Source: a bacterium
Lineage (GTDB): Bacteria > JAAXHH01
DNA: 64,000 nucleotides
Reading direction: 5' to 3'
Assembly (NCBI GenBank): GCA_963693015.1
Contig: OY843748.1
Location: 1,024,395 to 1,088,394, forward strand
The position numbers and the translations under genes were made by a program. Positions 42,076 to 63,967 of the stretch are shown piece by piece. The notes under the pieces were generated by a model. That model was not told where the DNA came from, ran no database searches, and worked only from the letters and a program-made list of their open reading frames with translations. Position 1 is the stretch's first letter. Every line of letters begins with the position of its first letter.

Positions 42076-42096
42076 ATGCGTATCCTCCCGGCTAAG

Positions 42097-42200
42097 CCGG
42101 TTCGCTCCGGCGGCCCCGGTTTGCTCCGGCGGCTCCAAGTCACTCCGGCGGCACCGACTGGCTCCGGCGACCGGTTCGCTCCGGCGGCCCCGGTTCACTG
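42097..42200 (+). repeat. Tandem 19-nt repeat x5.5 (ccggttcgctccggcggcc and variants; core gctccggcgg) about 22 nt upstream of the molybdoenzyme start codon
   Basis: Direct reading of 42097-42200. It is intergenic between the molybdoenzyme (minus strand) and the sialidase-like gene (plus strand). Confidence 0.7.
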
Positions 42201-42365
42201 AGTCAATTCGGTTTGGGATGTGATGCTGATGATCGGTACTATGATACATTGAGCGGGCCGAGCAGATCAAGGGCAATGTGTGGCTGTTGACAAGCGCGCC
42301 CCATCCGGGTAGTATCGATTGTCCATCACGAACGCCGGAGGTCTTGTATCTGGAGGTCTTGTAAA

Positions 42366-43520
42366 ATGAACGACATGCTCGCCGAAGATTACCTCGTGCT
42401 GGCTTCATCGCCCGACCCGGAGAACGTGTACGCCGGATCGCCCTCGATCGCCCGCATGCGCTCCGGCCGCCTGCTGGCCAGTTACGAGTGGTTTCGCGCC
42501 AAACCCAACAAGGAAGCGGTGCCGAATTCTACCGAGGTGCTGGTCAGCGACGACGACGGTGCCACGTGGACCCTGGCGGCCTGCCAGGATTTTATCTGGG
42601 CAACGATATGGTCTCATGAAGACGACGCCTATCTCATCGGAAACAGGCGAAAGAGCCGGGATATTATCATCGGCCGGTCTCGCGACGGCGGCTTTACCTG
42701 GGAAGGACCGGTCACGCTCTTCGAGGGGAAGCACCACTGCGCGCCTACGCCCGTACTGATCCACAACGGCCACGCCTACCGCGCCTTCGAGACCTGCGAC
42801 GCGCCCAGCCGCTTCGACTGGAAATCGCTGGTGGTGGCCGGCGACCTTTCGCGGGACCTCCTGGATCCGGCAGCCTGGCGCATGTCCAACCACGTCCGGT
42901 TCCCGGGCATCCCCGACGTGCTATCGCAGCGGAAGTACCCGGAAAGCCTGGAAGACAAGGTGCCGGCCGACAGCTTCCTCGAGGGCAATATCGTGCTGGT
43001 GGACGGCGAGATCCGGATGATCATGCGCACGATCGTCGACGGGCACACGACATCCAGCCTGGCCTCCATCGGCCGGGTCGAGGACGACGGACGGAACCTC
43101 GACTACCGATTCCTCCAGTACCACCCCATGCCGGGCGCCCAGTGCAAGTTCCAGATCGTCCACGACGAAGTGGGCGGGCTGTACTGGACCACGGTGACCC
43201 TGTCCACCAACCCGTGGCAGGACCGGGAACCCCTCCGGCGCATCGGTTTCAGCGGTCCTCCGGGCAACGAGCGGCGCATCCTCATGCTCATGTACAGCGT
43301 GGACGCCCTCAACTGGTTCCAGGCCGGCTGCGTGGCCATGAGCAGGAGCATGATGGAGTCCTTCAGCTACGCCTCGCAGGTCATCTCAGGAGACGATCTC
43401 CTGGTCGTCGCTCGCACCGCCCGCGGCGGCAAGAACCAGCACGACACCAACCTGGTCACCCTCCACCGGGTGAAGGGATTCCGCGATCTGGCGCTGGATC
43501 TGCGGCCGGTGGATGTGTGA
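42366..43520 (+). CDS. BNR/Asp-box repeat protein (sialidase/glycoside-hydrolase-like beta-propeller), no signal peptide
   Basis: 384 aa with Asp-box motifs SDDDGATWT and SRDGGFTW. Confidence 0.65.
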   Translation: MNDMLAEDYLVLASSPDPENVYAGSPSIARMRSGRLLASYEWFRAKPNKEAVPNSTEVLVSDDDGATWTLAACQDFIWATIWSHEDDAYLIGNRRKSRDIIIGRSRDGGFTWEGPVTLFEGKHHCAPTPVLIHNGHAYRAFETCDAPSRFDWKSLVVAGDLSRDLLDPAAWRMSNHVRFPGIPDVLSQRKYPESLEDKVPADSFLEGNIVLVDGEIRMIMRTIVDGHTTSSLASIGRVEDDGRNLDYRFLQYHPMPGAQCKFQIVHDEVGGLYWTTVTLSTNPWQDREPLRRIGFSGPPGNERRILMLMYSVDALNWFQAGCVAMSRSMMESFSYASQVISGDDLLVVARTARGGKNQHDTNLVTLHRVKGFRDLALDLRPVDV

Positions 43521-43563
43521 TAAAGATACCGCGTTACTTGCCGGCCTGATGGAGGATGAATTG

Positions 43564-43917
43564 ATGAGAACCAACGGCGTGAAGACCAAGCACCGATTCG
43601 ACGACACGAGAATCGAACAGGGCAGCGGCAATGTCTTCGCCGACCTGGAACTCCCGAACGCCGACATGCATCTACTCAAGGCGGAGTTGGTCGCACGAAT
43701 CGACAGAATCATCCGCCGACGCGGCCTGAAACAGGTGGAGGCAGCAAAGCTGCTAGGGTTGTCTCAACCTGACGTGTCGCGCCTGCTGCGGGGTAACTTC
43801 CAAGAGTATTCGATGGAACGGCTTCTGCGTCTCCTGACTACGCTGGGACGAGACGTGAGCATCGTAATCAGTGAGTCGCCCTCGGAACGGCCGGGACGGC
43901 TCAGCATAGAAGCGTGA
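43564..43917 (+). CDS. XRE-family HTH protein of the extended-N-terminus antitoxin type (COG5606-like), apparently orphan
   Basis: The start at 43564 has GGAGGA 7 nt upstream. ...GSGNVFADLELPNADMHLLKAELVARIDRIIRRRGLKQVEAAKLLGLSQPDVSRLLRGNF... fits the antitoxin-type XRE pattern. GC starts to fall here. Confidence 0.65.
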   Translation: MRTNGVKTKHRFDDTRIEQGSGNVFADLELPNADMHLLKAELVARIDRIIRRRGLKQVEAAKLLGLSQPDVSRLLRGNFQEYSMERLLRLLTTLGRDVSIVISESPSERPGRLSIEA

Positions 43918-44121
43918 ACCGCCATCCAGGCCAAGCTCCTCCACGATCGGGGTTGGAAATCCGAACTATGGAAATTGGATTTGGCGTTTTGTATCGGATT
44001 GTGAAGGACCTCGTCGCGCACGAAGTGGAGTCGAATCAACTTGGGTCGCGCCATGGACTCGTCAAAGTAGCAGTCGACAGCCTCCTTCACGTTGCTGATG
44101 AAGTAGGCCGTATCCTCGAAA

Positions 44122-45324
44122 TCAAGCGTTCGGTCCGGCCGGGTCCGGCTCGAAATGGAACGTTACCCGGACGAATCTGTCGCGTTCGAAGTTTTCGAGC
44201 GTCGGCTCCGTCCCGTTGAAGTTGCGCATGGCGTGGCGCATGGCAAGCCAGCCCCTGCCGCGGCGTTCCATGAGCCCGCGCACGACCATGGCGTTCGCCA
44301 TCATCTCGTTGCGCGATCGGGGGGCGCCACCCATCTGCGCCTGTTCGACCGTCATGTGGTTCGGGAGCGCGCCAGGGCTGGTCACCACGATGCGGTCGTC
44401 GAAGACCTCCAGCATCACCTGGGAGCCGGCGATGGCGTAGTCCCGGTGAATGACCGCGTTCACCAACGCCTCGCGGAGCACGTCTTCCGGGATGAGCGGG
44501 ACGTCCTCGCGGTAGAGTCCCCTGTAAATCTCTCTTCTCCCCAGGCTGCGGAACCACCCCATGGACCGGTGAACCTGCTCGTCCAGCCGTCCACGGCCCT
44601 CGCCCGCGCTCAGAACGTCGGATGCCTGGTCGACGCCTCCGTACCTGGCGCATTGGATGAACAGGCTCGTGGCGTGCGGAAACCCCTGGGGGTCCTTGCC
44701 GAAGACCATCAGGCCGTAAAGGGTTGGGCGGAGCGTCCCGTTCAGGCGGTCGCATACCGAGGCGTTGCGCAAATCGCTCTCAACGTCAGGCTGCGGAACA
44801 TCCTCCACGCGCATGCCCTGCGCCCGCATGTACGAGCGAAACGCGTTCATTTCGATGTCGTCCGCGGTCGCGGACGCGATGACCTGCTGCTCCGTGAGGA
44901 CCAGGCCGAAGACGTTGAACAGTTCCTGCAACTCGGAAGGAGAAGGCGCCGCGGTGGCGCGGCCCCGACGGATCCAGAAGCGCCCGTCATAGCTGAACGG
45001 CTCGTATCCCCGCCGCTGGCGAGGAACGTCAACCCAGTGCACCCATCCGGCATCCGTGAGATACCGGTCGCACTCAGCGGTGACCGGCGTGCCGCAGCCG
45101 TTCTGCAGGAAGTTCGTCAGCCGTTCCTGCGCGCTTTCCGGGTCTTCCCGCGCTCCCGCTACGACGCCGGAGTTGTCTACACCGATGACGAGCAGTCCCC
45201 CGTCGCCGTTGGCGAATGCGCACAGCGTCCTGCCGAGAGAACTGAAGTCACCGAGTCCCCGCTTGAATTCCGTGTGGCTGTTCTCTCCGCTTTTGATGCG
45301 CCGCTGCACTTCCGGCCAATCCAT
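44122..45324 (-). CDS. AlbA_2 (Schlafen-like divergent AAA) plus HATPase_c_4 domain protein; putative DNA-binding or ATP-binding regulator
   Basis: 400 aa. N-terminal ENSHTEFKRGLGDFSSLGRTLCAFANGDGGLLVIGVDNSG is AlbA_2-like. The C-terminal LREALVNAVIHRDY...GRG block is RecG-C/HATPase_c_4-like. Confidence 0.7.
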   Translation of the reverse strand: MDWPEVQRRIKSGENSHTEFKRGLGDFSSLGRTLCAFANGDGGLLVIGVDNSGVVAGAREDPESAQERLTNFLQNGCGTPVTAECDRYLTDAGWVHWVDVPRQRRGYEPFSYDGRFWIRRGRATAAPSPSELQELFNVFGLVLTEQQVIASATADDIEMNAFRSYMRAQGMRVEDVPQPDVESDLRNASVCDRLNGTLRPTLYGLMVFGKDPQGFPHATSLFIQCARYGGVDQASDVLSAGEGRGRLDEQVHRSMGWFRSLGRREIYRGLYREDVPLIPEDVLREALVNAVIHRDYAIAGSQVMLEVFDDRIVVTSPGALPNHMTVEQAQMGGAPRSRNEMMANAMVVRGLMERRGRGWLAMRHAMRNFNGTEPTLENFERDRFVRVTFHFEPDPAGPNA

Positions 45325-45459
45325 GCGCGCCTCTCAATGAACGCCTCTCTAATGTACGCCTCTCAGAACCCGTTATTTTGTTGCCGCCGCCGGAAGACTT
45401 CGTCGTCGCCGTCCACGGTGTGGACCATAGCATCTCGAACGGATGCCGACTCTCTCTGT

Positions 45460-45498
45460 CAGACCGGCTCTCCGAGCTATCAGACTGGCTTGCCGAGC
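45460..45498 (+). repeat. Two 18-nt imperfect direct repeats (cagaccggctctccgagc / cagactggcttgccgagc) in a divergent promoter region
   Basis: Direct reading. It lies between the AlbA_2 gene start (45324, minus strand) and the giant HTH gene start (45872, plus strand). The intergenic region 45325-45871 is AT-rich. Confidence 0.4.
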
Positions 45499-45871
45499 GT
45501 CTGAACTCCGGCCAGCCACCGCATTTGCAATGGTAATGATAAACGTATTCGGCGGGTGCGGCAATCCATAATGGCGATCCGGATTGAGATTGCGACCTCG
45601 ACATGTATTCACTTTGATCCCGACAGTGCTGTTTTGAATAATGCGGAAAACCATGCAGGCGAGATGGACGTCGCCGTGATCACCGACCAAGGTCGAGTTC
45701 GACCTACAGATGACGCACGATTCGGATTTCGCCCCTTAACCCGGATGTGCGAAATGCAGTTAATCCTTATGTTCACGATTTTGTATTGCGTAACGATACA
45801 GAATACAGTATATTCCGGCATAACAGTAATCCATAAAGTACAGCATCTCCGATTCACAAAGGATACAAGCC

Positions 45872-48800
45872 ATGGCCCAATACGGAACCACTGAGGATAA
45901 TATCCATCCTGGAGCATATGTCAGTCGGGAGGTCATCCCGAAGGGTATGTCGGTCACTAAAGCCGCAGAACTGCTTGGAGTAGGACGACCGGCATTGTCC
46001 AACTTTCTGAACGGCAATGCGGCCCTGTCACAGGAGATGGCACTACGACTCGAACGCACCTTCGGAGCTGACCGAGAAGCCCTGCTTGATCTCCAGGCAA
46101 AGTATGATCGTCGCGACGAAGCCATTGATACACCTGTCGCCGCCGGCCGCCACGCGCCGACGCTGGTCCAGATTACAGCCCGGAGAATCGAGGAGTGGGC
46201 CGACACGATAGTCGCCAGGGAAGAATTGCCCGCGCTACTGCGACGGCTCGTCTACTCAACCGGGAACCAACTCACTCGTGTCGACTTCCCCGCCTTCGAC
46301 AACGCCCAACGGCCCGGATGGGACGGCGAGGTCGAGTTGCCGGTCCCGACGCCCTGGATACCAGCCGGCCGGTCAGGATGGGAATTCGGGTGCAGTGAAA
46401 GACCCGCAACCAAGGCAAACGCAGATTACACGAAGCGCGTCCGGGCGTTTCCTTCAGGGGAACGGCGCAAAAGGACATTTGTTTTCGTCACGCCGCGCAA
46501 CTGGCCAGGGAAAGGCAAATGGGCTGCAGAGAAAGCGGCTCAGGGGGACTGGAAAGATGTGCGCGCCTATGATGCAAGCGATCTGGAACAGTGGCTCGAA
46601 CAGTCCGCCGAGACGCAGGTATGGTTCTCCGAACGGCTCGGAGTTCCGATTGAGGGCTTCCGGTCGCCCGAAATGTGCTGGTCCGATTGGGCTAATGTTT
46701 GCGAACCAGTCCTGTCACCTTCGCTGTTCTCGTTAGCCGAAGGTTCTATCGATGACTTTAATCGGTGGTTGAGTGCGCAGCCAGAACGGAATTTCATCGT
46801 GTCCGCCGACTCCCCCGACGAGGCGCTTGCATTCGCATGCCATGTTGTACGGGAGGCGAAATCCGATGTTGGCGAGCCCGGCGCCGGTGCACTCGTATTT
46901 GACACGCCGGAGTCCATACGGCGGTTCCGCGCATCGAATACCGCCCCGCGCATAGCAATCATCCACAACGCCGTGGTCGAGAGGGAGATCGGGGATCTCT
47001 GCCGGAGTTGCCACGTCATCATCATGCGACCCGCCAATGATGTAGATGTCGACCCCGATATCCGCCTCAAGCTACCGAGTTGGCAGTACTTATCGGACGC
47101 ATTGACATCCATGGAGATAGACGAGGACAGGATCGACAGGCTCATTCGAGAATCGGGTCGGTCACCGGCCGTATTGCGCAGACGGCTATCCACAGTACCT
47201 GCAATCCGCAATCCCGCCTGGTCCGGGAACCCTCAGATTGCCCGCAAGCTGTTACCAGCAGCCTTGGTCGGCGCCTGGAGCAAAGCCTCAACGGCCGACC
47301 TTGAGGTTGTCCGAAGACTCGTCCGTACGGACGATGACAACGTCGTGGAAGACCGTGTCATGGAGTTATTGAACCTCCCGGATTCACCCCTCTGGTCTAG
47401 AGGAGATTATCGGGGTGTGGTCTCGCGCATCGATGCGCTGTTTGGCATTGCCAGATTCGTTACCGGAGAGGCACTCAATATGTTCTTTTCCGAGGCCGAA
47501 CGTGTGCTATCCGAGTCCGACCCCGCACTTGACCTGCCCGAAAACGAAAGATGGACCGCCGCGGTGCATGGCAAGGTACGCGCTTATTCGGCCGCCCTAC
47601 GACAGGGAATCCGTGAAATGCTGGTGATTCTTGCCATCCATGGGAACCACCTGTTCCGAGATCGGCTGAACGTTGATCTTGAGAACAGGGTATCCTCACT
47701 TATTCGTGATTTGTTGACTCCCCTGACGCTCGATATCCTGCTTTCGCACCAAGAAGACCTTCCAGTTTACGCCGAAGCAGCCCCCGACGGCTTTCTCAAG
47801 ATCATCGAAGACGACCTAGATAAGCCGAATCCGGTCGTGTTCGGGCTGCTGAAGCCGGTTGACGCTAGTCTATTTGAAGATTGTCCGCGAACGGGGCTTT
47901 TATGGGCACTGGAATGTCTGGCCTGGAAGCATCCTTCAAAGGTGAGCTTGATACTCGCGAAAATGACGAGGATCCGTATCGATGACAACTGGGCGCACAA
48001 GCCCCTCGACAGCCTTCAGGCGATCTATCGATTTTGGATACCGCAGACCGCAGCTACCCTCGAAGATCGGGTGCGAGGACTTAAACTACTTGCGAACCGC
48101 AATCCGGAAGTTTGCTGGCAAATCTGTGTCGCTCAGTTCGATACTGGTCCACAATCCGCAACGCCCGCTTATCGGCCGCGCTGGCGCGACGAGGCGGAAG
48201 GCTCGGGTCATGGCGTTTCGCACGCACAGATCGTCGAATTCAGGAAGAAGGTGTTCGGCCTCATCCTACAGTGGCTGAACCACGACCATCGGACGCTTGG
48301 CGATCTTGTCGAGCGGTTTCATGGCTTTACCGACGAAGACCAATCTACAATCTGGGACCTGATTGAGGCCTGGGCGGTCGCCGCAGCGGACGACGGGACC
48401 AAATCCGAACTACGCGAACGAATCCGCGAAAAAATGTTCACTCGTAGTGGTATGCGACGGCGTATGCCGGAAGAATCTCTGGCTCGAGCGCGTACGGCAT
48501 ATGACCTGCTGAAACCGCAGGATCCGGTGGATCGAAATTCCTGGCTATTCAAAGACTACTGGATCGAACCATCCGCCGATGGAATCGAAGGTGAAGACAC
48601 CGAGAACCACGAAGATATTGTTCGCCAACTTCGTAGTTCCGCCATGGGAGAGATATGGTCGGAACGTGGTTTCCAGGGGGTGGCCGCTGTCCTGGTTAAT
48701 TGCGCGGTGCCCATGGACGTTGGGGACGCCCTGAACGTCCACATCACGGATTCCGGAGCGAGAGTCTGTTTCCTGCGACAGTGCCTCTCGGTTGCCGACT

Positions 48801-49951
48801 TGGAGTCAGAGATGGACCTGTGCATTCGCGGGTTTCTCAGGTCGATTGAGGAAGAGGCTCGTGCCGAAATCCTGGCAAAGGCAGCCCAAGACTTCGCTTC
48901 GGATCACATTGCCCGACTGTACCGTTGCGCACCGTTTTGCCAGCATACCTGGCGCCTGGTCGACGCATATGACAAAGTAGTCCAGGACCGTTACTGGCAA
49001 GCGGTCATACCGGACAGGGTTCGCTTTACGGAAGAAGAAGAAGAATTATCCGAGTTTGTAGACCGCATGCTGGATGCGAAACGACCCCGTGACGCGTTTC
49101 ACTTCACGCGTTTCGACTATTCGAAGATTGAAACGTCGCAGTTGCAGCGTCTACTTCTAGGCCTCGTCGCAGTGGACGCGGTTCCAGATGAAAGTTACCA
49201 TCACCAACTAAACAGCCATGACGTCGCGGATGCGATGCGGGAACTAAGCGGTCGAGTCGGGATAGATCGATCGGAGATGGCCAAGATGGAGTTCATGTTC
49301 ATCCAGACTCTAAGTCACAGTGAATACGGGATTCCCAATTTGGAACGTTTGGTGGCCGAGTCGCCCATTGACTTTGTCCGGATCCTGGCACTGAGTTTCA
49401 GGCGTAAAGATGGTGGCCAGGATCCCCGCGAATGGGACATAGCGAACGCGGCCAACCGTGCCAAACTGGCAAGCGCGGCTTACCGAGTTCTTATGCATAT
49501 GAGTTTCATTCCCGGAACCACAGATGATGATATAGATGAAGCATACCTGTCACGGTGGATCGCGGAAGCACGACGACTCAGCGCCGAACACGGGCGCGAG
49601 GTAGCGGGTGACCACTACATAGGCCAGATCCTGGCAAGAGGTCCGGCAGACGAGAACGGCGTAAAACCCTGTCAGGCGGTCTCAGCGGCTATGGAAAAGG
49701 TCGGTTCTGAAGAAATCGCTTCCGGATTCTTAATCGGAGTCCTCAACGCACGCGGGGTGGTTTGGCGATCTCACGAGGAAGGGGGGAAGCAGGAACGTGA
49801 ACTCGCGGACATGTACCGCAACTGGGCCTCGCTACGTTCCCCAGACTTTCCCTACGTCGGAAGTATCCTGGAGAAAATCGCTGAAGACTACGACCGTCAG
49901 GCTCAAAGAGAAGACGACAGGGTGGAAATCGAACGCAGGCTGGAGCATTGA
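45872..49951 (+). CDS. Giant (1359 aa) protein: N-terminal HigA-like HTH antitoxin-type domain fused to a large uncharacterised body (central unknown domain plus long helical-repeat region)
   Basis: N-terminal HPGAYVSREVIPKGMSVTKAAELLGVGRPALSNFLNGNAALSQEMALRLERTFG matches the HigA/VapI HTH. No Walker A or nuclease motif was found in the remaining 1270 aa. The region is lower in GC than the chromosome backbone. The stop lies 58 nt before the next gene. Confidence 0.7.
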   Translation: MAQYGTTEDNIHPGAYVSREVIPKGMSVTKAAELLGVGRPALSNFLNGNAALSQEMALRLERTFGADREALLDLQAKYDRRDEAIDTPVAAGRHAPTLVQITARRIEEWADTIVAREELPALLRRLVYSTGNQLTRVDFPAFDNAQRPGWDGEVELPVPTPWIPAGRSGWEFGCSERPATKANADYTKRVRAFPSGERRKRTFVFVTPRNWPGKGKWAAEKAAQGDWKDVRAYDASDLEQWLEQSAETQVWFSERLGVPIEGFRSPEMCWSDWANVCEPVLSPSLFSLAEGSIDDFNRWLSAQPERNFIVSADSPDEALAFACHVVREAKSDVGEPGAGALVFDTPESIRRFRASNTAPRIAIIHNAVVEREIGDLCRSCHVIIMRPANDVDVDPDIRLKLPSWQYLSDALTSMEIDEDRIDRLIRESGRSPAVLRRRLSTVPAIRNPAWSGNPQIARKLLPAALVGAWSKASTADLEVVRRLVRTDDDNVVEDRVMELLNLPDSPLWSRGDYRGVVSRIDALFGIARFVTGEALNMFFSEAERVLSESDPALDLPENERWTAAVHGKVRAYSAALRQGIREMLVILAIHGNHLFRDRLNVDLENRVSSLIRDLLTPLTLDILLSHQEDLPVYAEAAPDGFLKIIEDDLDKPNPVVFGLLKPVDASLFEDCPRTGLLWALECLAWKHPSKVSLILAKMTRIRIDDNWAHKPLDSLQAIYRFWIPQTAATLEDRVRGLKLLANRNPEVCWQICVAQFDTGPQSATPAYRPRWRDEAEGSGHGVSHAQIVEFRKKVFGLILQWLNHDHRTLGDLVERFHGFTDEDQSTIWDLIEAWAVAAADDGTKSELRERIREKMFTRSGMRRRMPEESLARARTAYDLLKPQDPVDRNSWLFKDYWIEPSADGIEGEDTENHEDIVRQLRSSAMGEIWSERGFQGVAAVLVNCAVPMDVGDALNVHITDSGARVCFLRQCLSVADLESEMDLCIRGFLRSIEEEARAEILAKAAQDFASDHIARLYRCAPFCQHTWRLVDAYDKVVQDRYWQAVIPDRVRFTEEEEELSEFVDRMLDAKRPRDAFHFTRFDYSKIETSQLQRLLLGLVAVDAVPDESYHHQLNSHDVADAMRELSGRVGIDRSEMAKMEFMFIQTLSHSEYGIPNLERLVAESPIDFVRILALSFRRKDGGQDPREWDIANAANRAKLASAAYRVLMHMSFIPGTTDDDIDEAYLSRWIAEARRLSAEHGREVAGDHYIGQILARGPADENGVKPCQAVSAAMEKVGSEEIASGFLIGVLNARGVVWRSHEEGGKQERELADMYRNWASLRSPDFPYVGSILEKIAEDYDRQAQREDDRVEIERRLEH

Positions 49952-50009
49952 ACGGTTTCAAGACGTTGATACGTCAATTGGACCCGTGAACAAGAACAGG
50001 ATATTCCAC

Positions 50010-52667: not shown

Positions 52668-52842
52668 TAACGCCGAACCGGTGGTGCTCAGTTTGCGCCA
52701 TTACCTCATTGTCGGGTTTCGCTTGAAGTTTTGACCCAATTCCTGCGGGGTTGTCCAGAGTTTAGACCGCAGATTGAGCGTCACGCAAATTACGGATTTA
52801 ACCGGTGCTGGGCGGCATCGTTATGTATCCGGAGGACCGCGA

Positions 52843-53730
52843 ATGGCGAATACGATCATCTACAAGGAAACGCATGAGATCATAAACTGGTTGGACACTG
52901 CGTTGAAGATGGAATGGCAGAAATACGCAGCTACCCCGGTGAGGTCAGACGTAGACCCGGAGCATATGGTAGCCCAGGGTTGGGGATACGTTATTGCAGG
53001 ATACTCACTGATTGAACAAGGCCTCAAGGCAGTGCTGCACTTACGCGGCGTCGAACCGCCGAAGACGCATGTGTTAAGCGATCTGCACACCAGATTACCT
53101 TCAGGGGATCAGGACGTATTAAGAACATACTACGACGACTTCCGCTATACTTTCCCTGGTATGCGTGCGTTCCCACTGGCATCGTTCGACAAGTATCTGG
53201 TGAATCTGGACGGTGTAAAGAACAGCCAAGATCGATACTTCGGTGCGACTGATTGGCGTTACTTCCTGACCGAGGAAAAAAGTGGAGCGTCGATGCCGCT
53301 GGTAAGCGTCAACGTAATGCATGAGGTCGCGTTCGGTTGCGTAATGATAGTTGAGTCAATCTACAAGGACGAGGATCTGACGGAGAGGTACACATACAGT
53401 TGGCGGCTTCAAAGGGAAAGATCGAAACTGTTATCAATCTGGTTTTCGAACCGCATTAACTCGCTTGGATGGGGGCAGGAAGGCGACCGGATCGAGATAC
53501 TTTGGGGGCCGGACTACAATGATCGGTACGACTATCTAGCGTTCAAAGACGATCGACACCAGTGGTTCTTTGCGCCGCTTCCAAACGCGGAGGAAACCAA
53601 GCTTTCGATGATAGACAAGCGGCAAGAACTGAAATCATTCGACCTCGAGAAAGGGTTCTGGAACCATGGTACCGCTAGTGGTATGCCGGAGAGGCGTCAT
53701 GAATCCGAGCCACGTCACATCATGTATTAG
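52843..53730 (+). CDS. Hypothetical protein (296 aa), island cargo of unknown function
   Basis: Start MANTIIYKETHEI at 52843 with GGAGGA 7 nt upstream. No motif recognised. It lies between the RloC-like ATPase and the Type ISP gene. Confidence 0.5.
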   Translation: MANTIIYKETHEIINWLDTALKMEWQKYAATPVRSDVDPEHMVAQGWGYVIAGYSLIEQGLKAVLHLRGVEPPKTHVLSDLHTRLPSGDQDVLRTYYDDFRYTFPGMRAFPLASFDKYLVNLDGVKNSQDRYFGATDWRYFLTEEKSGASMPLVSVNVMHEVAFGCVMIVESIYKDEDLTERYTYSWRLQRERSKLLSIWFSNRINSLGWGQEGDRIEILWGPDYNDRYDYLAFKDDRHQWFFAPLPNAEETKLSMIDKRQELKSFDLEKGFWNHGTASGMPERRHESEPRHIMY

Positions 53731-53886
53731 CCGATGGTTGTTGCTCTGCTGGAGACCGTGGTAGATTGTAACGTCTGGATATACTGCCACTCGGGTACCA
53801 GCTATCAAGCACAAGGTGATAATCGCTTCGGGCGGTCTGGGCTAGCTGGTAGCTACGTCGACTATCGCCGGAATACCATCTCCATC

Positions 53887-56800
53887 TCACTCCGCACCAC
53901 GCTCGTTGGAAATGGTCGGCTCGCGGCTCATTCGGGCTCTCCAGTCTCTGATCGTCTCGATAGCGATCCCCGTCGTCTGAGTTGCGGCCTGGTCAAGACA
54001 CTCCCGCACTTCGTCATCTGTGGCATACTTCCACGGCTTGACCGGCATGTGCCTGACGTGTTCATATGCTTCGGCGAGAGTAGCAGGACTTGTCGCCTTG
54101 AAATCCGGAACGGGTAGTGTGGCCAGTTCAGCTTGAGAAAAAGAGGGGTTTGACAAGGTTGACCCTCGTTTCATTAGAAATCCAAGTGCTCCGAGCGTGC
54201 TGTTACACCATGCACACAGTGCTTTCGCCTCACTGAGACTGATTGTCTTGTCTTGGATAGGAACCCACATCGACCCGACAGTCGGTGCGTTGCTCAAAAT
54301 TGAAAGCAACCTTCCAGACTGTGTATTGAACCTTGCCGCGAGTAGGACATGTCCAGCCTGTTTACGGTAACGAGCGGCAAGGGCAGGCTTCTTATCAGCG
54401 ACAGCCTGCTCCGGGACTGCCTCCATGGTGGTCCGTAGATCCTTCGACCGACCCCAGAACACGCGGTAGCCGTCACCACCTTCTCCATCGTCGACCGGAC
54501 TAAACGCATCGCGAATCCTCCGACCGGCAGGTCCGAGCAGGGATCGTTGGCCAAGCGGCACGAGTCCGTGTTCTTTTTCGAGTTGCATCGCAGCGTCAAC
54601 AAGTACCGGATCCAGAAACTGGCACGGGCGCCAATCGCCGTCCCTGATGCGCACCTCAGGCTGTTCGTAAACGGTAATCCACTTCCCTGCGTCGTCCGCC
54701 TCTATGGCTTCGACCACCTCAATGGCCTCCGCAGTATTCGAAGGCATGACGCGCAACGAAATGAAACGGGTGGGCTGCCTATCGCCATCCTCGGGCCTGC
54801 TTCCATCACGCCTGCAAACAAGCAGCGACTCGTGTATGGCGGTGTTCTCGCTGAAATTGGGTCTTCGCGGATCATGGCTTGTAACGACGGTCTCGACGTG
54901 GAATCTCTCGGCAAGGTATTTCCGTTCCGCCAGACCGCCGGAACCAGTACAAGCCGTGGTGGGGATTACCTTGGCAAGCGTTCCTCCCCGTGCCCCACGT
55001 ATCAGCATGTCGGCGAGGGGGGTAAAGTAGGTACTGAGGCTATTGGCCGTGACGACGCCTTTCGCCCCCTGATCTCTGCGTTCCAGAAATTTCTGTATAC
55101 CGAGTTCATGGCGTTGCATCGCCTTCCGGCCGTCCTCGCCGTACTTCCTGCTTCTGTTCTCGTTCGCGGTAAAAGGGGCATTCATGATGACAACATCGAG
55201 GTTGCGCAAACGGAATCGGAACATATCACTTTCAATAACTTGGGAGGGATCTATTGCATTAACCTGAGCCGCTTCAAGGGTTGAGAGTGAACGCACCGGC
55301 ACGATCATAGCACGCAGATCTCGGGCGTCATCCGCAGTGCTTAAAACCTCTAGTGATCCAGCCTTCGTAGTCCCGTCACTCTGTGGTCCGTGAGGCATAG
55401 TGAACAAGTTCATGCGCGCGTAGTCGACTGTAGGTGCACCGAGAGTCATATTGCAGGCGGCGAGTTGAATTCCATGCTGATTTATGTCTAGACCGCAAAG
55501 CACGTCTTCAACGAGTCGACGGTGCAGACGATTACGAGCTTCACCATTTAATTCTTGGCTACCTTCACAGCGGTCTTTGATTGTTTTCAGGGTCGCCATG
55601 AGCAGCGTCCCCGTTCCGCACGCCGGATCCATGATTCTAAGGTTTGCAACCGCTTCAGAGTCATTCCAGTCGATGAAACTCTCACTTAGTGCCATGCGTG
55701 CCAGCATGACCGCCGAAAGGTTGTTCGTGTAGAATGCACCGTCACTTTTAGCTGAACCGAGAATTCGGTGGTAAAGTGGCCCCGCATGATCATGGCCAAG
55801 ATCGCTCAGTGAGTCGGCAACACGGTTCGCACACTCGGCAACGACACGAATCGCGTTATCGACCGCAGTTCCTTCACGTAGCGCACCGAGTACAGCCAGA
55901 GCAGGTCGGAAAACCGGAGCATAATCCTTTTCTAAGATCGCCTCCCATGCGATTTGAAGTACCTCTCTTGGGTTGCTCGAACCTGCAACTCTGTCGAGGC
56001 GCAATATAGTCTTCATCTCCGGTTCGTCCCGAAGCCTGCGCTGGAGTAGGCAGGCGTTGCAGAGCATGAGTGCCGCGATCGTGCAGATCCCCTTGGCACC
56101 ACCATCGTCTTCGGGCACCAAGTCAAGCGCTTCTGCGAGCGGACCTTCCATGCCTTCTTCCTGGAGTACCCTACTAGCATGTAAAACTGCATCGACGATT
56201 TCATCAGCCACGACTTGACCCGGTCTACCAAGCCCTGAAGCTGCCGCAACCTGCGCATAAATCCCCTGTTCAGCTTCCTTTAAATCGAGTCTCTGCTGGA
56301 TATTTCCTGGTTGTGTTTCACGAACCACGCCGGGAGGTTTGGTTGTTCCGTTAGACGTACTTTGTTCGTAAACTTTTACGAAAGTAGCCGGGGATTCGGC
56401 CAAACGTCCATCATGGGCTTGTAGTGCACGGAGAACGCGTCCGACCGTCTGATATCCCTCGGTTCCTCGCTCAAGTGCCGCCGCGACATCACTTCCGGGT
56501 TCCACGATTACTGGTACAATAATGTATCCGAAACGCTTACCTGGCGCTTTCCTCATGACCCGCCCAACGGCCTGAACTACATCAATCTGACTGTCTCTCG
56601 GATCGAGGAATGCAACTGCGTCCAACTGAGGTACGTCGACGCCTTCAGTGAAAAGTTTTACGTTGCAGACTAATCTGCACTCATCTTCTCGATTTACCTG
56701 AGCGAGCGCTCTAAGCTCCAGATTGCGTTGGAGTGCACTATTGGACGCATCCAGGTGATTGGCGATTACCTTCATTGCACGTCCATCTTTCATTCGCCTT

Positions 56801-58320
56801 GTAGTTGCTCTGAGTACTTCGCTTTCCATGAGCGCGCCTGCATACCACTTCGATCGCGCAATGCTGTTCGCAAACGCCATGGTGCGAGGAAGCTTTCCCG
56901 GTTGCTCAAGGACTGTGCCTTCAGTGACCCCGTTCACCGCAAGAGATACGCCCAGAACCCGAGTCATTTCGTTCGTCGTTGGAGTGTTCTTTTGCTTCGA
57001 AGTAGTTTCCAGAATTTCGAGCCTTCGACGGAGCCCGGGGGTTACACTCGCGCTACTCACGCCCAGAACAATGACGCGGTAATCCGAAAGCATACCGTGC
57101 TCAACAGCCTCGGCAAACGGGAGGTGGTGGAACAGCGGTCCATAGACGTGGTGATCGTTCATGTCGACGACTTCGACGCCTTGCTCAGCGAGTTTTCGTT
57201 TTGAACGTTGGGTGTATATTCGCGGTGTTGCGGTCATGTAGAGTCTTTTTCGGGCTCGCAGCCGCTCCTCATCGTGAAACTCTTGAAAGTCGACCTTTCG
57301 GAATCCGTTCGATTTTCGCTCACCTAGAAGTGCTCCAGTCGTCCGGTGGGCTTCATCAGCGATCGCCAGATCAAACATCGGAGCGTTGTGTGTTTCCTGC
57401 GCCTCAGTGACACGTCCCAGTGAGTGATAAGTACAGAACACGACGCTAGTTGGACCTGCACCGGTAAGCGCAGCGGCGATCTTGGCCGGATCCGTTGTAA
57501 CCGGACACTCCAGCTCAGAAATCCGGATATCTTCATTTTCGTTACGCCCACCTGCGGTCGGATCGGAGCAAACGACAATACACTCAAGCTTACGCGTTGT
57601 CTGCCGTAGCCATTCACGCCGGGCTTGAGAGACCAGTGCGATAGTCGGTGCCGCAAAAAGTATCCGCTGGCCGTCTTCAACAACCTGCTCTGCGATACGA
57701 AGTGAGGTGAATGTCTTGCCTGTACCACAAGCCATTACGAGCCGACCACGGTCGTGGTTGGATAATCCATTAACAGTATCTTCAATTGCCTCTACCTGAA
57801 GCGGCCAGGGATCCTGTATAGGTCGCTCGGTGTCCTGTTCTTCGACCTGAATATTGAGGTACTCGCGGAAATCAACCTGCGTAACTTGGGGATTAGCGTT
57901 CTGGATAGCATTTTCCGCATTTGGACCCCACCGGCATGTGGCAACTATCCACCGTAGCTGGTAAATCTCCTGCTGAGATCCTCCGAGAAACTTGTCGATC
58001 TCGCCCTTTCCTAAAGTATGACCTTCCTCATAACATTTGCACTGGATGGCAACCCATTCTCCAGTGGTTCGCCGTGCAACTAAGTCGATTCCTATATCGC
58101 GACCATCAAGTCCGGTCAACGCTTCGCGCTCCGGCCAATCTGGCCAACGCCATATTTCGTCTATTTCGAATTCGGCCTGTTGCAGCGCAATGCGCATGAA
58201 CAACTGCTCGAACCAGCGTCCCTTTTCGGATTCGTCACGGCTTTCTGAACGAATGCGTTTGAGGATCTCGCCAGCACTCGGCCGACCGCCTAAATCGAGA
58301 TTGATCTGGACGTTTGTCAT
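53887..58320 (-). CDS. Single-polypeptide Type ISP-like restriction-modification enzyme: Mrr-type PD-(D/E)xK nuclease + SF2 helicase-like motor + gamma-class N6-adenine methyltransferase + C-terminal target-recognition region
   Basis: About 1477 aa. Nuclease GIDLVARR...VAIQCKCYEE (D...QxK). Motor motifs ACGTGKTFT (I), IADEAHRTTG (DEAH, II), YMTATPRI (III) and QAVGRVMR (VI). Methyltransferase motif I IMDPACGTGTLLMA and motif IV VIMNAPF (an NPPF variant). The start at 58320 (MTNVQ) or 58356 is uncertain. Confidence 0.65.
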   Translation of the reverse strand: MTNVQINLDLGGRPSAGEILKRIRSESRDESEKGRWFEQLFMRIALQQAEFEIDEIWRWPDWPEREALTGLDGRDIGIDLVARRTTGEWVAIQCKCYEEGHTLGKGEIDKFLGGSQQEIYQLRWIVATCRWGPNAENAIQNANPQVTQVDFREYLNIQVEEQDTERPIQDPWPLQVEAIEDTVNGLSNHDRGRLVMACGTGKTFTSLRIAEQVVEDGQRILFAAPTIALVSQARREWLRQTTRKLECIVVCSDPTAGGRNENEDIRISELECPVTTDPAKIAAALTGAGPTSVVFCTYHSLGRVTEAQETHNAPMFDLAIADEAHRTTGALLGERKSNGFRKVDFQEFHDEERLRARKRLYMTATPRIYTQRSKRKLAEQGVEVVDMNDHHVYGPLFHHLPFAEAVEHGMLSDYRVIVLGVSSASVTPGLRRRLEILETTSKQKNTPTTNEMTRVLGVSLAVNGVTEGTVLEQPGKLPRTMAFANSIARSKWYAGALMESEVLRATTRRMKDGRAMKVIANHLDASNSALQRNLELRALAQVNREDECRLVCNVKLFTEGVDVPQLDAVAFLDPRDSQIDVVQAVGRVMRKAPGKRFGYIIVPVIVEPGSDVAAALERGTEGYQTVGRVLRALQAHDGRLAESPATFVKVYEQSTSNGTTKPPGVVRETQPGNIQQRLDLKEAEQGIYAQVAAASGLGRPGQVVADEIVDAVLHASRVLQEEGMEGPLAEALDLVPEDDGGAKGICTIAALMLCNACLLQRRLRDEPEMKTILRLDRVAGSSNPREVLQIAWEAILEKDYAPVFRPALAVLGALREGTAVDNAIRVVAECANRVADSLSDLGHDHAGPLYHRILGSAKSDGAFYTNNLSAVMLARMALSESFIDWNDSEAVANLRIMDPACGTGTLLMATLKTIKDRCEGSQELNGEARNRLHRRLVEDVLCGLDINQHGIQLAACNMTLGAPTVDYARMNLFTMPHGPQSDGTTKAGSLEVLSTADDARDLRAMIVPVRSLSTLEAAQVNAIDPSQVIESDMFRFRLRNLDVVIMNAPFTANENRSRKYGEDGRKAMQRHELGIQKFLERRDQGAKGVVTANSLSTYFTPLADMLIRGARGGTLAKVIPTTACTGSGGLAERKYLAERFHVETVVTSHDPRRPNFSENTAIHESLLVCRRDGSRPEDGDRQPTRFISLRVMPSNTAEAIEVVEAIEADDAGKWITVYEQPEVRIRDGDWRPCQFLDPVLVDAAMQLEKEHGLVPLGQRSLLGPAGRRIRDAFSPVDDGEGGDGYRVFWGRSKDLRTTMEAVPEQAVADKKPALAARYRKQAGHVLLAARFNTQSGRLLSILSNAPTVGSMWVPIQDKTISLSEAKALCAWCNSTLGALGFLMKRGSTLSNPSFSQAELATLPVPDFKATSPATLAEAYEHVRHMPVKPWKYATDDEVRECLDQAATQTTGIAIETIRDWRARMSREPTISNERGAE

Positions 58321-58494
58321 GGGATTGACCTTGAACAAGGTAGTACCGGGAACCACCCGGAACGGGGTGGAACGCTTCTGTCAACACGCGATTCCACAAT
58401 CAACTCTTGTTCAGTTGAGATCGGCAAAGGCGCAGATCACGAATTAGGAAGGTTGACGATCAGACGGTCAAAGCCAAGATGGTCCACTACCTTC

Positions 58495-58863
58495 TCACCC
58501 ATGTTGACTCGCCGATGTTTGATCCAAGTCAGTTGGGATTACCGATTCAAGCAAACGAATCAGTTCTGGCAAATCGTCCTCGACCGTCTTCCAGACTGTA
58601 TCGAGATTAATGTCGAAATAGGCATGTACGAGTCGATTGCGCATTCCGATGATCCGCTGCCACGGCATCTCTGACAAACGGCTACGCGTGGGTTCTGATA
58701 TCTGCGTCGCCGCCTCGCCAACAATCTCGATATCCTTGATTAACGCGAGGACGAGTTGGCGATCGTTGTCCAGGTCACTACGCGCATGTCCCTGAACGAA
58801 GGAAACTGCTTCCCGCGCGGCGTCCAACATGTGCCGTAAACGGATTTCGTCATCCCTGCTCAT
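58495..58863 (-). CDS. hepT: HepT (HEPN/DUF86) toxin
   Basis: 122 aa. The Rx4HxY motif in [14 protein letters not shown] is diagnostic of DUF86 HEPN ribonucleases. It overlaps the upstream MntA gene by 14 nt. Confidence 0.8.
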
Positions 58864-59155
58864 ACTGAACCTCCGCAGTGTCGATGACCTCCTGGCGGAA
58901 GTAACGACTCAAATCCTCCGGAGTTCGCAGGTCCACCTCCCGACCGCCAAACAATTCGGATAGCTCAATCTCCAATCCGGCCATGCCCAGCAGACCGGGA
59001 GTGTGGCCTGGTGCGAACTCGACCAGTACGTCGATATCGCTCTCCGGGCCAAAATCCGTCCGCAACGCCGATCCGAAAATGGCAAATCGCCGTATACCGT
59101 GATTTTGACAAAAAGCTGCCAATTTAGTTTTTGGGATCGACCACTGTGCGTTCAT
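58850..59155 (-). CDS. mntA: MntA nucleotidyltransferase antitoxin (minimal NTase)
   Basis: 101 aa. [21 protein letters not shown] carries the GS...DxD NTase motif. The classic mntA-hepT order with overlap is present. Confidence 0.8.
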
Positions 59156-59961
59156 GGCTGCAAAACCCGGTCTGCGTCAATGTCGAAGCCAGCGGCTTTC
59201 AATTCCCGGGCGAGTGCCATCTTCCATGCGCCCAGTTCGTCAAGGACGATATAGACAACCCCCTCGAAGTCAGAAGGAGTTTCGATGTCATGCGCCCTCA
59301 GAGCACATACCTTTTCGCGACCCAACTTCCCGATGAAGAATCCGAGTTCGAGAATCACGTTCTGACGGGCTCGGGGCTTTAAATTACCCTGATCCTCCTC
59401 GGCCGCGCCGATGTCGTCGGGCGTCAGCAGAACCACGGCGAAACCCGCATCCGCATGGTCCTCGAATTTCTCGATGATCGTACGGCCTCTATTTGCCTGC
59501 TCGTGCAGGATAATCGGTTCGAGTTCCAGCCTTGACAGGAATCTTGCAACCGCGTCCCTGGCACGCTCATCGTGACCATGAACGACAAAGACTTTCTTTG
59601 TCGCCGATCCCTTATCGTCACGGCCCGTATCTGGTGCTTTAAAATCACCCTGATCTGAGGGTTGTTTCACCGTTTCTGCTTCATCTTCCCAAAAGTACTT
59701 GATCTCATCGAGACCTGACGCGACATGGGAAACCATGGTTCTCAGGTATTCACGAAAACCACTGAGGGTCTTATTGTGAGTTTTTGGAAGTAGTGTAAAC
59801 TGAGAGCTTTCCTCACCAAATATGTTGGTAAAAGCGGTATAAACGTCACGTATCCATTTTTGGACTTCCGGAGAGCTTTCATCCTCCATATCCAGCTCCG
59901 AAGCCTCATCTACCAAACTCTGTAATCGTTCAATTGCAATTGACTTTCGGACTGTCGTCAT
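59152..59961 (-). CDS. TIR-like (COG4271/DUF1863-type) nucleotide-binding domain protein with an N-terminal helical domain
   Basis: The preferred start [13 protein letters not shown] at 59961 has GGAG 9 nt upstream. The C-terminal block [64 protein letters not shown] matches my recollection of the bacterial TIR-like consensus. The stop overlaps the mntA start (ATGA). Confidence 0.55.
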
Positions 59962-60278
59962 CGCGTCAACTCCATGATCCTCATATAATCGAGCTTTCCG
60001 ATCGACGTTATACTGCCCCGCACGGACCGAGTTTACCCGGCGCAGTAAAACCAGAATCACCAGCTTGTAGACAGAAAAGCATTTCTTGACGCAGTGTCGT
60101 ACGCTCCTTGTCGTAAAAGATACATGTGCGCTAAATGGGGTCAACTCAGTTTCTGGGATACGTCAAATCCTACAATCGCGTGCTATTGCACTGTGTCGTC
60201 GACACCGTAATGTTCTTGGAAGTTATGCTTTTCCGATCGACAGCGCAGCCTCCGTAAGTCCGTCAGTTTTCAAGTCCG

Positions 60279-60755
60279 TCAGTTTTCGATCGGCGCCGCC
60301 GCCACGTGTTCCAGCCCGTACTCCTCCCGCAGGCGAGCCATCTCGGCTTTCAATTCCTCTGGGTCCGCGGTGTCCGGCGGTATGCGCTTTAGCAGCCGGT
60401 CGGAAGCCTCGAAGAACCGGTCCAGCCCCGCGGGCGTGCAGATCAGCATGATCACCGCCGGATCGTCCCCGTCATTCCAGAAGGAATGGGGCCGGTAGCC
60501 TGGTACGGTCACCATCTGGCCAGCTTTGAGCACGAAGGCGCTTTCGTGGAGGAATTGGAAGGTCAGGGCGCCCTTGACGACCAGGAACATCTCGATGAAG
60601 GCGTGGCGGGTGAAGACGGGCGGCGGACTGTGGGGCGGTTCGACGCATTCGATGACCGTCACGCGGTCCTCCGTCGCGGACCCTGGCGTCTTTATCCGCA
60701 CGTTCTGGCCCATGAGTGTGTTGAGCCAGTCGCCTCTGTTGCCGTCGCCTTCCAT
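60279..60755 (-). CDS. Cupin-domain protein
   Basis: 158 aa. A single cupin fold with a His-containing motif (TRHAFIEMFLVVKGALTFQF...GYRPHSFWN). Host-like high GC returns here. Confidence 0.65.
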   Translation of the reverse strand: MEGDGNRGDWLNTLMGQNVRIKTPGSATEDRVTVIECVEPPHSPPPVFTRHAFIEMFLVVKGALTFQFLHESAFVLKAGQMVTVPGYRPHSFWNDGDDPAVIMLICTPAGLDRFFEASDRLLKRIPPDTADPEELKAEMARLREEYGLEHVAAAPIEN

Positions 60756-63800: not shown

Positions 63801-63967
63801 ACGACCCGGATGCGGCCGTTCACGAAGCGGTCCTCGAGCTGCATCTTGAAATCGGGAAACAGGCGGGGGTCGTTGACGCCGCGGCCGAACAGCTCGGTCA
63901 GCAGGACGGCCTGCGTGTACACGTTGTGGAAGTTGACCTGGTCGAGGTCGTCGATGGGGGTGTCCAC
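60821..63967 (-). CDS. Large FtsX-like (MacB/DUF214-type) ABC transporter permease with two permease domains; the N-terminus may extend beyond the window
   Basis: 1048 aa with blocks of TM helices separated by large soluble domains (LTCATLVLLVFTVLSFTSVQTF, then MVVAALIILNTMMNAVYERFSEIGVYSAVG...), typical of fused double-FtsX permeases. Only 33 nt remain upstream of the first ATG. Confidence 0.6.
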   Translation of the reverse strand: MDTPIDDLDQVNFHNVYTQAVLLTELFGRGVNDPRLFPDFKMQLEDRFVNGRIRVVEFDPREDYIPSKPKPGAVVRFRRYNKTISGVKNEIFVVADSAGVAECTELEAGRTYPTEGYVMDPETGEIIYAPDRGPYGEGAYPLEITMDWVDKEKPTVVFRSEATNIYDLVDPRFLTRLNEAVVLDESGNPPLEWGMTFQEGGWTTGFSYEEDTAVVFMPPGSRFKATMSTGLFGRRLILTNADAQHPEGIGFDSGIGSIPLTSYQVAKDMWHLDEARIAALRSVGVSNTRLDDFHREAGRLLDRAEAARQSLQWDRFIKHARAAWGYESRAYPDATGTANDVVKGVLFYMVLVIPFAYALERLVFGFANVYKRIAVTFGIFLAAYGLLRFTHPAFQITTAPDIVLLAFITFALAAVVIWLISGRFTQTMREVRQDGRTVQATDVRRSSALATAFALGIGNMRKRKARTLLTCATLVLLVFTVLSFTSVQTFLRLQKVSQDTEAAYTGFLVRNPNWAALQKQTHEYVRSEFGSSEAEDQGITIVSRTWYSGNFPGDQTFVKVDRTGEDGTPRSTYASAMLGLLPEERDVSGLDRALTAGRWFAADERDVCIIPTQMAELLGMSEEDTGRSEIMIFGKPYEVIGMFDAAALERITDLDGEPLTPVDYAATGHDLLTELALMDYDEEPVQMAKFEHMPAANLILAPQAFVNDLGGTLRSVAVRFPSDETALERIERFMQRLGIPVVAAVGGEVAVYSAMSLSSLSGLGNLFIPMVVAALIILNTMMNAVYERFSEIGVYSAVGLAPAHIGALFMAEAAMYAVIGGMSGYLIGQTVARGITEYQLLAGLTLNYSSLSAVASTAMVMAVVLLSTVYPARKASQMAVPDVNRQWAFPEPDGDDWSFEFPFTISRTETLGLYAYLTRFFESYGESTLGNFMTDEVVLTGTGEESVVTYVIAMKTWLAPYDTGVSQRVALSAAPAEQERDLYAVWVDIHRESGDVDSWQRLNRRFLNVLRKQFLVWRTVDQEVKKVYADEGRGMIGGGRREAVAGPA

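Follow-up and report, generated by a model that had tools for sequence, protein, structure and literature searches.

Hotspots of horizontal gene transfer that lack mobile genetic elements show excess recombination in the flanking core genes, and in one survey, roughly half of the hotspots lacked recognizable mobile elements and 27% were without any integrase or transposase (Oliveira, Touchon, Cury and Rocha 2017; PMC5635113). The core defense hotspots cDHS1 and cDHS2 of Pseudomonas aeruginosa have low GC content and no mobile-element signature, and their traffic has been proposed to involve transduction and homologous recombination via the flanks (Johnson et al. 2023; PMC10250203). Hotspots of this sort are already known from Pseudomonas and E. 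coli. Here, we analyze a 64,000-nt stretch of bacterial contig OY843748.1 (hereafter, the window), in which positions 43,521-60,278 are best understood as an integrase-free core defense hotspot in its occupied state, a known kind of locus. We describe the hotspot and its empty sites in relatives, the identities of the cargo, the gene remnants at module junctions, the nested structure of the island, and the incongruence of its two flanks.

The hotspot lies between two convergent core genes, with a third core gene beyond it on the right:

42,366-43,520, plus strand: left flanking core gene, BNR/sialidase-like protein, 384 aa (Pfam BNR_2, a weak match)
60,279-60,755, minus strand: right flanking core gene, cupin, 158 aa, convergent with the sialidase gene (Pfam Cupin_2)
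60,821-63,967, minus strand: right-flank core gene, FtsX-type permease (Pfam FtsX)

Searches with the sialidase-like protein identified 22 related genomes (79-95% amino acid identity), and homologs of a giant protein encoded in the island added three loci of the same clade (L033, L034, and L035), for 25 loci in all. The related genomes, many of them closed chromosomes of 3.7-3.97 Mb, are metagenome-assembled genomes (MAGs) that carry the label Latescibacterota or Gemmatimonadota. The clade consists of uncultured marine bacteria, which, to judge only from the names of the MAGs, would be sponge-associated. The gene order UxuA-amidohydrolase-molybdenum cofactor (Moco) oxidoreductase-sialidase-gap-cupin-FtsX is kept in all 21 of the 21 loci that reach both sides, and the FtsX gene is 75-95% identical and syntenic in the relatives. 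What differs from one genome to the next is the gap. It is essentially empty in L020 (63 bp), L017 (152 bp), and L021 (146 bp, in a locus without the cupin gene), and six genomes hold ~750 bp with a Phd-PIN pair only. Other relatives have 1.6-6.3 kb containing varied modules, L015 has more than 10 kb in a locus that runs off its end, and the window has 16.8 kb. The island is absent from the syntenic position in several relatives and is horizontally variable, in support of the initial annotation, which had called this stretch a defense island of ~17 kb without recognizable mobility genes. The interval is not conserved across the clade, yet L033 is colinear with the window from the Schlafen gene to the cupin gene, at ~84% nucleotide identity.

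The limits of the island are sharp. Homology among relatives stops at the sialidase stop codon (43,520) and restarts at the cupin 3′ end, with the cupin stop codon at 60,279, and alignments reveal no intergenic sequence common to relatives between the two stops. The 16.8-kb island, window 43,521-60,278, therefore fills the space between the stop codons of the convergent sialidase and cupin genes, and the borders originally proposed from the window agree with these comparative breakpoints.

Composition sets the same interval apart. The GC content of 43,501-60,250 is 0.554, against 0.632, 0.648, and 0.653 in segments of the backbone; since these segments span 0.632-0.653, the backbone is ~63-65% GC and not 65-70% as first estimated. 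Relative to 36 backbone windows, tetranucleotide L1 distances of 3-kb island windows give z = +6 to +11.5, and the GC-normalized correlation of tetranucleotide usage gives z = -3 to -8. The anomaly thus extends from GC content to the third codon position (GC3) and tetranucleotides. The drop is uneven and has three levels. The XRE gene at the left end is intermediate (GC3 0.68), the Schlafen gene next to it is backbone-like (GC 0.64-0.69, GC3 0.83), and the strongly deviant block is ~45.4-60.25 kb (GC 0.545; GC3 0.50-0.61, versus 0.80-0.90 for backbone genes). Within the interval first described as more AT-rich, the strong anomaly thus covers only ~45.4-60.25 kb. Other related genomes with an occupied gap also have a gap GC of 0.48-0.59 beside a flank GC of 0.62-0.65.

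The gene content of the island, for which Pfam, PADLOC, NCBIfam, and PDB searches confirm and refine the initial calls, consists of the following intact genes and remnants:

43,513-43,917, plus strand: orphan XRE-type regulator (Pfam HTH_37, 1.5e-24; likely real start near 43,567)
43,950-44,021, plus strand: remnant (amino acids 11-34) of a 239-aa gene that in L015 is the partner of the XRE gene (71% identity over 24 aa by tblastn)
44,004-44,093, minus strand: remnant comprising the final 30 codons of a small 70-aa gene (intact genes in L001 and L022 match it at 100% in their 3′ part)
44,122-45,324, minus strand: Schlafen/AlbA_2 plus HATPase_c_4 protein, 400 aa (Pfam, 1.6e-19 and 5.2e-21)
45,366-45,452, minus strand: remnant, last 29 aa of a Ppl-like PHP-ATPase gene (tblastn, 62% to residues 908-936 of the L015 protein)
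45,872-49,951, plus strand: giant protein, 1359 aa (NCBIfam TIGR02607 at 56 bits, above cutoff; PDB HigA matches)
50,010-52,667, plus strand: AAA_13/SMC-like ABC ATPase, 885 aa, PADLOC candidate PDC-S06 (PDLC04891, 1.2e-191 end to end; Pfam AAA_13, 3.8e-17)
52,843-53,730, plus strand: 295-aa protein (Pfam HEPN, 1.2e-3, below cutoff)
53,887-58,356, minus strand: single-chain Type ISP-like restriction-modification (RM) enzyme, 1489 aa (Pfam Mrr_cat_2, 4.9e-29; ResIII, 3.6e-21; Helicase_C; N6_Mtase)
58,495-58,863, minus strand: HepT, HEPN RNase toxin (Pfam HepT-like, 3e-25; Rx4H motif RNRLVH)
58,850-59,155, minus strand: MntA, nucleotidyltransferase antitoxin (Pfam NTP_transf_2, 1.3e-10; PADLOC PDC-S09, 7.7e-24; GSx10DxD motif)
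59,152-60,144, minus strand: CAP12/PycTIR-type TIR-like protein, 330 aa, PADLOC candidate PDC-S35 (PF10137, 6.5e-40; PDLC05005, 9.7e-83)

Defense models are matched by 7 of the 9 island genes in the window and by many genes of the relatives, as counts and not as an enrichment over the rest of the genome. The matches in the window and relatives comprise Type ISP-like RM, MntA-HepT, PDC-S06, PDC-S09, PDC-S35, Ppl, a type II methyltransferase (MTase), a PD-T4-4-like ATPase, HEPN_AbiU2, PIN, and HicA. By homology, the cargo would be expected to defend against phages.

Across the clade, these genes behave as independent modules that occupy ordered slots. Reading from the sialidase side, the slots hold a 176-aa gene with an N6_N4 MTase (type II RM-like), the Phd-PIN pair, the 70-aa gene, and the Schlafen gene. 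The fifth slot holds either a Ppl-like PHP-ATPase or a block containing the giant gene, the S06 ATPase, in some cases the 295-aa gene, and the ISP-like enzyme, and the sixth holds either HepT-MntA-TIR or HEPN_AbiU2, followed by the cupin gene. In L035, the fifth slot contains giant-S06 plus the PD-T4-4-like ATPase. Different species retain different subsets of modules, and the order is conserved.

The giant-S06-295aa-ISP block is nested between modules that many species carry at the same relative positions, namely, Schlafen, MntA-HepT, and TIR. The spacing between the Schlafen and HepT genes is 83 bp in L007; the window instead carries a 12.9-kb block there (~45,588-58,45x), with no target duplication. 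The giant-S06-ISP block also occurs at this locus in L033, L034, and L035 (81-92% nucleotide identity), and in L033 and L035 it lies between Schlafen and the cupin-proximal module. Its GC content is low in every carrier (0.54-0.56). Since the flanking core genes are 80-92% identical at the nucleotide level, a range similar to that of the block, the block is not a recent private acquisition of the window genome; it is not unique to it and not obviously recent. The nearest relatives of the window by flank sequence are L022, L001, L007, and L013, all of which are without the block, and the three carriers are not among the nearest. What might have been read as a single acquisition of 17 kb is instead a stack of modules of different ages.

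Three truncated remnants, of the 239-aa gene, the 70-aa gene, and the Ppl-like ATPase gene, mark module junctions in the window. A homolog of the XRE gene occurs at the hotspot only in L015, where the 239-aa partner gene comes next. Since only a 24-codon stub of the L015-type partner remains in the window, the XRE gene is an orphan. The initial annotation called it an antitoxin-like regulator, and its identity as an HTH_37 protein stands; as an antitoxin, it is the leftover of a two-gene module. The 70-aa gene adjoins a HicA toxin gene in L035. Intact Ppl-like PHP-ATPase genes lie upstream of Schlafen in L002 and L015, and the L015 protein matches the PADLOC Ppl model at 1.3e-32. The Schlafen gene itself, whose earlier domain assignment agrees with both Pfam matches, is in the same relative position in L001, L002, L007, L008, L015, L033, and L035. 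The 295-aa gene is intact in the window and L034, absent from L035, and reduced to a 165-bp tail in L033. These remnants, together with the L033 tail, record a history of deletions and replacements in the island.

Signatures of site-specific mobility were sought at the borders and within the island. A tRNA/tmRNA scan and an Rfam search of the window found no tRNA or tmRNA gene and no Rfam family. All genes of the window island are accounted for, and none encodes a recombinase, integrase, excisionase, or transposase; given the coding density and the small intergenic space, there is no room for a hidden recombinase gene. The longest direct repeat shared by the borders is 8 bp, a length reached in 327 of 500 shuffles; for inverted repeats, the maximum is 10 bp, which 36 of 500 shuffles attained. 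A 17-nt inverted pair at 43,794 and 60,209 (15 of 17 positions matching) was dismissed as chance. Neither the outer borders nor the nested junctions have repeats resembling attachment (att) sites or target duplications. An integrase is present in 0 of the 25 loci, and insertion sequence (IS) copies occur only in L015, which has two of the IS3 family. The L015 copies, each an orfA/orfB pair (HTH_Tnp_1 plus rve), are at 17,149-18,305 and 19,492-20,672 of that locus. The absence of integrase, transposase, tRNA, and direct-repeat borders, first noted from the window, is therefore borne out, as is the picture of a variable defense-gene island without mobility genes.

If no such element carried the modules, how do they turn over? 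Neighbor-joining (NJ) trees were built separately from 3.3 kb of the left flank and 3.0 kb of the right, and 16 pairs of splits, each split supported by at least 90% of bootstraps, conflict between the two. For example, the window pairs with L022 on the left, whereas L001 pairs with L022 on the right; L007 and L013 are paired on the left and apart on the right; and L010 groups with L014 and L016 on the left and with L006 on the right. Conflicts between halves of the same flank number 4 and 2; the whole comparison is local to the two flanks, without a genome-wide baseline. Pairwise distances correlate at 0.54 across the hotspot, versus 0.72-0.90 within flanks. Because the gene remnants, the shared module order, and the conflicting flank trees argue for turnover by deletion, replacement, and recombination and not for site-specific integration, we favor, with moderate confidence, the interpretation that this is a hotspot of ordered, independent modules turned over by deletion and by homologous recombination via the flanks. 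Modules would be lost by deletion; incoming DNA of a related lineage, recombining through the conserved flanking genes or, alternatively, through modules shared inside the island, would add or replace them. An integrase, att site, or transposase would then be unneeded, and none would be left behind. The mechanism of acquisition was initially described as unclear; our searches agree in finding no trace of att sites or integrases, and the recombination and deletion route now proposed gives the missing mobility genes a testable mechanism.

The main rival, a possible but in our view less likely history, is that of an ancient composite island, inherited vertically and altered by differential deletion only, with no lateral gain since the ancestor of the clade. 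The modules follow one order in every locus, the remnants show that deletions occurred, and the identity of the block to that in L033, L034, and L035 (81-92%) falls within the range of the core flanks, all of which this history would predict. It would not predict that GC3 should still be 0.5-0.6 beside genes at 0.85 despite supposed long residence, nor the presence of non-homologous alternative occupants (Ppl-like versus the giant block; AbiU2 versus HepT-MntA-TIR), nor the strong conflict between the two flank trees, nor the scatter of the carriers over lineages that are roughly equidistant. Several points nonetheless weigh against turnover by recombination at a defense hotspot. The conserved module order and the similarity of block and core divergence fit an old island worn down by differential loss just as well. 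The case for recombination, which we infer to be the route of gain, draws on ~3 kb per flank and NJ bootstraps; the conflicts within flanks (4 and 2) may mean that the whole region is simply recombinogenic; and neither a donor sequence nor the endpoints of recombination tracts have been identified. The defense role of the cargo is assigned by homology only, with several of the models being PADLOC "candidates," and for the giant protein, the 295-aa protein, and Schlafen, a role in defense is conjectural.

Could the island have begun as a site-specifically integrated element, such as a genomic island, integrative and mobilizable element, or prophage, that has since decayed and lost its integrase and att sites to erosion? 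Such elements typically have a lower GC and carry accessory genes, the giant family occurs on conjugative plasmids, and a member of the 295-aa family lies beside a phage-type integrase in L120. However, the window has no integrase, excisionase, tRNA, or border repeat, the 25 homologous loci are likewise devoid of integrases, the breakpoints are the stop codons of convergent genes and not a shared att core, and the content is modular and nested instead of representing a single element, so we regard this origin as improbable. Delivery of modules by IS-mediated, composite-transposon-like insertion seems more doubtful still. It is suggested by the L015 hotspot, where the two IS3-family orfA/orfB pairs bracket the XRE-239aa module, but searching all 64 kb of the window with the L015 IS3 proteins revealed no IS or transposase remnant, the module junctions are without inverted repeats or target duplications, and IS elements occur in just 1 of the 25 loci. 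That nothing was acquired horizontally, with the low GC being a property of the genes or the product of a chimeric assembly, is hardly credible: the general point that defense genes are often AT-rich is set against the empty sites in relatives, the same arrangement in independent assemblies that include megabase contigs, and a tetranucleotide signature that deviates even when GC-normalized.

The giant protein is the most unusual of the cargo. Only its first ~80 aa are recognizable by profile, as a HigA-type helix-turn-helix (HTH), confirming the HigA fusion initially proposed; no other Pfam domain and no PADLOC model match was found. Its family, in which hundreds of positions are invariant, numbers at least 2868 proteins of ~1355-1360 aa. 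The family is found in 97 plasmid records, some of them conjugative (Shewanella pS19502, Rhizobium pPR4), as well as in chromosomal islands, and it is nearly absent from phage genomes, where there was 1 weak partial match. An AlphaFold (AF2) model of residues 96-430 (predicted local distance difference test score 86) has an alpha/beta domain followed by a P-loop-NTPase-like domain, so that the layout reads as a HigA-like HTH, a putative nuclease-like domain, a P-loop-fold domain, and ~900 aa without an assigned fold. A canonical PD-(D/E)xK reading of residues 151-181 could not be established from the sequence. The best Foldseek matches of residues 96-430 in the PDB are Avs4, Avs3, and AVAST5, all weak (E ~1e-3; template modeling scores 0.25-0.31). 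The Walker A motif G/AxxxxGK[ST] is absent in 11 of the 11 family members checked, in which the P-loop position reads (A/S)(A/G)(D/E/G)SxxE/D(A/T)LAF. Thus, the giant protein resembles Avs3, Avs4, and Avs5 in the fold of residues 96-430 and in having a long C-terminal region, as in STAND sensors, and differs from them in its N-terminal HigA-type HTH, its lack of Walker A, and the weakness of the fold matches. It does not belong to the Avs family, and the likeness is a lead only.

The S06 ATPase, whose start codon was placed using an 885-aa homolog in L034, had been described as the RloC-like ATPase of the giant protein. The PADLOC PrrC model matches it only at residues 738-796 (59 residues in the ATPase segment; E 1.5e-5), and PADLOC models detect no RloC/PrrC C-terminal anticodon-nuclease domain in it. 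As a general pair, the combination does not hold: an S06 homolog was beside a giant homolog in 0 of 80 diverse metagenomic loci, which rules out a conserved two-gene system. Because none of these 80 loci has the pair, the association is specific to the hotspot of this clade. The only recurrent neighbor of giant genes is a divergently transcribed Fic-domain gene (10 of 80 loci); in L036, a type III RM system follows the giant gene. A 295-aa effector partner for S06 was also considered and ruled out, as the 295-aa gene is missing in L033 and L035 and is solitary elsewhere. This gene, which was absent from the initial annotation, belongs to a family of 247 hypothetical proteins, nearly all of 295 aa. 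In other organisms, family members are solitary and adjoin type IIG (Eco57I-type) or Type_ISP_C/ISP-like MTases (L119, L120); the phage-type integrase mentioned above is the L120 neighbor.

It is also conceivable, as a tentative joint reading to which we give rather little weight, that the giant family is a stand-alone immune sensor-effector and, separately, that the hotspot is a trans-species immune locus. The giant protein may have the plan of an Avs/NLR-like protein (nuclease-like domain, NTPase fold, long sensor) that lost nucleotide binding and gained an autoregulatory HigA-type head. The haplotypes of the hotspot, with their ordered slots and alternative occupants, may be kept polymorphic by selection and shuffled by recombination.

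The remaining cargo resembles described systems more closely. The nuclease and superfamily 2 (SF2) helicase of the predicted Type ISP RM enzyme are indeed in one chain, as the Mrr_cat_2 match and PDB matches to LlaBIII (4xqk, 4.6e-93) and LlaGI (5ffj, 1.4e-78) confirm for the nuclease-helicase half only. The motifs GTGKT, DEAH, DPACGTG (motif I), and NAPF are present. The N6_Mtase match (4.4e-8) covers part of the model only, and MTase motif IV (residue 1059) reads NAPF instead of NPPY/F, as it also does in L033 and L034. The C-terminal 840 aa fail to align with either LlaGI or LlaBIII and with the ISP-type model of PADLOC, and no target-recognition domain was identified in the C-terminal half. 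The enzyme therefore shares with LlaGI and LlaBIII a single chain with an N-terminal Mrr-like nuclease, an SF2 helicase-like ATPase, and an N6-adenine MTase region, whereas its MTase and presumed target-recognition half, with NAPF as motif IV, is divergent. The MTase may be atypical or inactive.

At the cupin end, Pfam, PADLOC, and sequence motifs all support the TIR-like-MntA-HepT assignment made at the outset. The HepT and MntA genes share a 14-nt overlap and have the features of MntA-HepT, a type VII toxin-antitoxin system. The TIR-like protein has the CAP12/PCTIR TIR-like domain in common with Cap12 of cyclic-oligonucleotide-based antiphage signaling systems (CBASS) and with PycTIR of Pycsar, but it lacks the adjacent cyclase of those systems, as no cGAS/DncV-like nucleotidyltransferase (CD-NTase) or pyrimidine cyclase gene is beside it in the island. 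NCBIfam Cap12 models score it at 28-37 bits against a cutoff of 450, and its best match is the stand-alone PDC-S35.

Several other features of the window and its relatives deserve mention. Between two PhyH-dioxygenase paralogs, positions 26,200-28,100 drop to a GC of 0.45-0.47, with a tetranucleotide z of up to +11.6, and form another low-GC islet, sharper than the first. It contains a gene for a 457-aa AAA_15/AAA_21 ATPase (PADLOC NsnB, 3.6e-38; PDC-M55A, 4.8e-36) and a 152-aa gene without matches and is probably a two-gene defense system in a small hotspot of its own. The surrounding backbone, 19.5-33.5 kb, has two sulfatases and at least six PhyH-dioxygenase paralogs, along with two DUF6785/DUF6784 paralogs (17,438-19,432 and 23,399-25,381). 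This cluster points to a backbone specialized in degrading sulfated or unusual organics, which is consistent with, and not proof of, sponge association. A 613-aa protein of backbone composition (35,947-37,788) combines a class I S-adenosylmethionine methyltransferase with a C-terminal HNH_4 endonuclease motif, and a 369-aa protein (2,523-3,632) is a fusion of HTH_3 and Peptidase_M78 (ImmA/IrrE-type). Regulators with HTH_3 and Peptidase_M78 are often associated with stress switches or mobile elements. In the molybdopterin-oxidoreductase gene (minus strand), a GC-rich 19-nt unit is repeated in five tandem copies in the 5′ region (42,083-42,205), and relatives align poorly at the N terminus of this protein, with Moco matches beginning at residues 39-112. 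Within the hotspot of L002, positions 11,906-12,673 are a perfect tandem array of a ~96-nt unit that reads in one frame as a repeated 32-aa peptide; as the array has no spacers, it is not CRISPR-like.

The locus extends the pattern of core defense hotspots from well-sampled pathogens to an uncultured marine clade represented only by MAGs and probably associated with sponges, and the same slot persists across species-level divergence. It constitutes a natural catalog of ~15 interchangeable modules, in which unannotated proteins, above all the giant HigA-fused protein but also the 295-aa protein and the relatives' proteins of 176, 239, and 275 aa, become defense candidates through guilt by association.

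How does this hotspot compare with those already described? Defense islands, in the sense of Makarova/Koonin and Doron/Sorek, are regions in which RM, toxin-antitoxin, and abortive-infection-type genes cluster with uncharacterized genes. That definition is silent on a conserved chromosomal slot, which is the main feature here. With the hotspots surveyed by Oliveira and colleagues, the locus shares rapid turnover and phylogenetic incongruence in the flanking core genes; their study was statistical and covered 80 cultured species, whereas ours concerns one locus in MAGs, with recombination not set against a genome-wide background. The closest likeness is to cDHS1 and cDHS2, which also occupy a fixed slot between core genes, vary in defense cargo and size, have lower GC, and belong to no obvious class of mobile element. 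Our comparison differs in being made at the level of species in an uncultured clade (~80-95% amino acid identity) and not among strains of one species. The size range is smaller, from 63 bp to ~17 kb, with one locus of more than 10 kb that runs off its end. Finally, in contrast to cDHS1 and cDHS2, the slot described here lies between convergent protein-coding genes with no adjacent tRNA or tmRNA, and its modules keep a conserved order.

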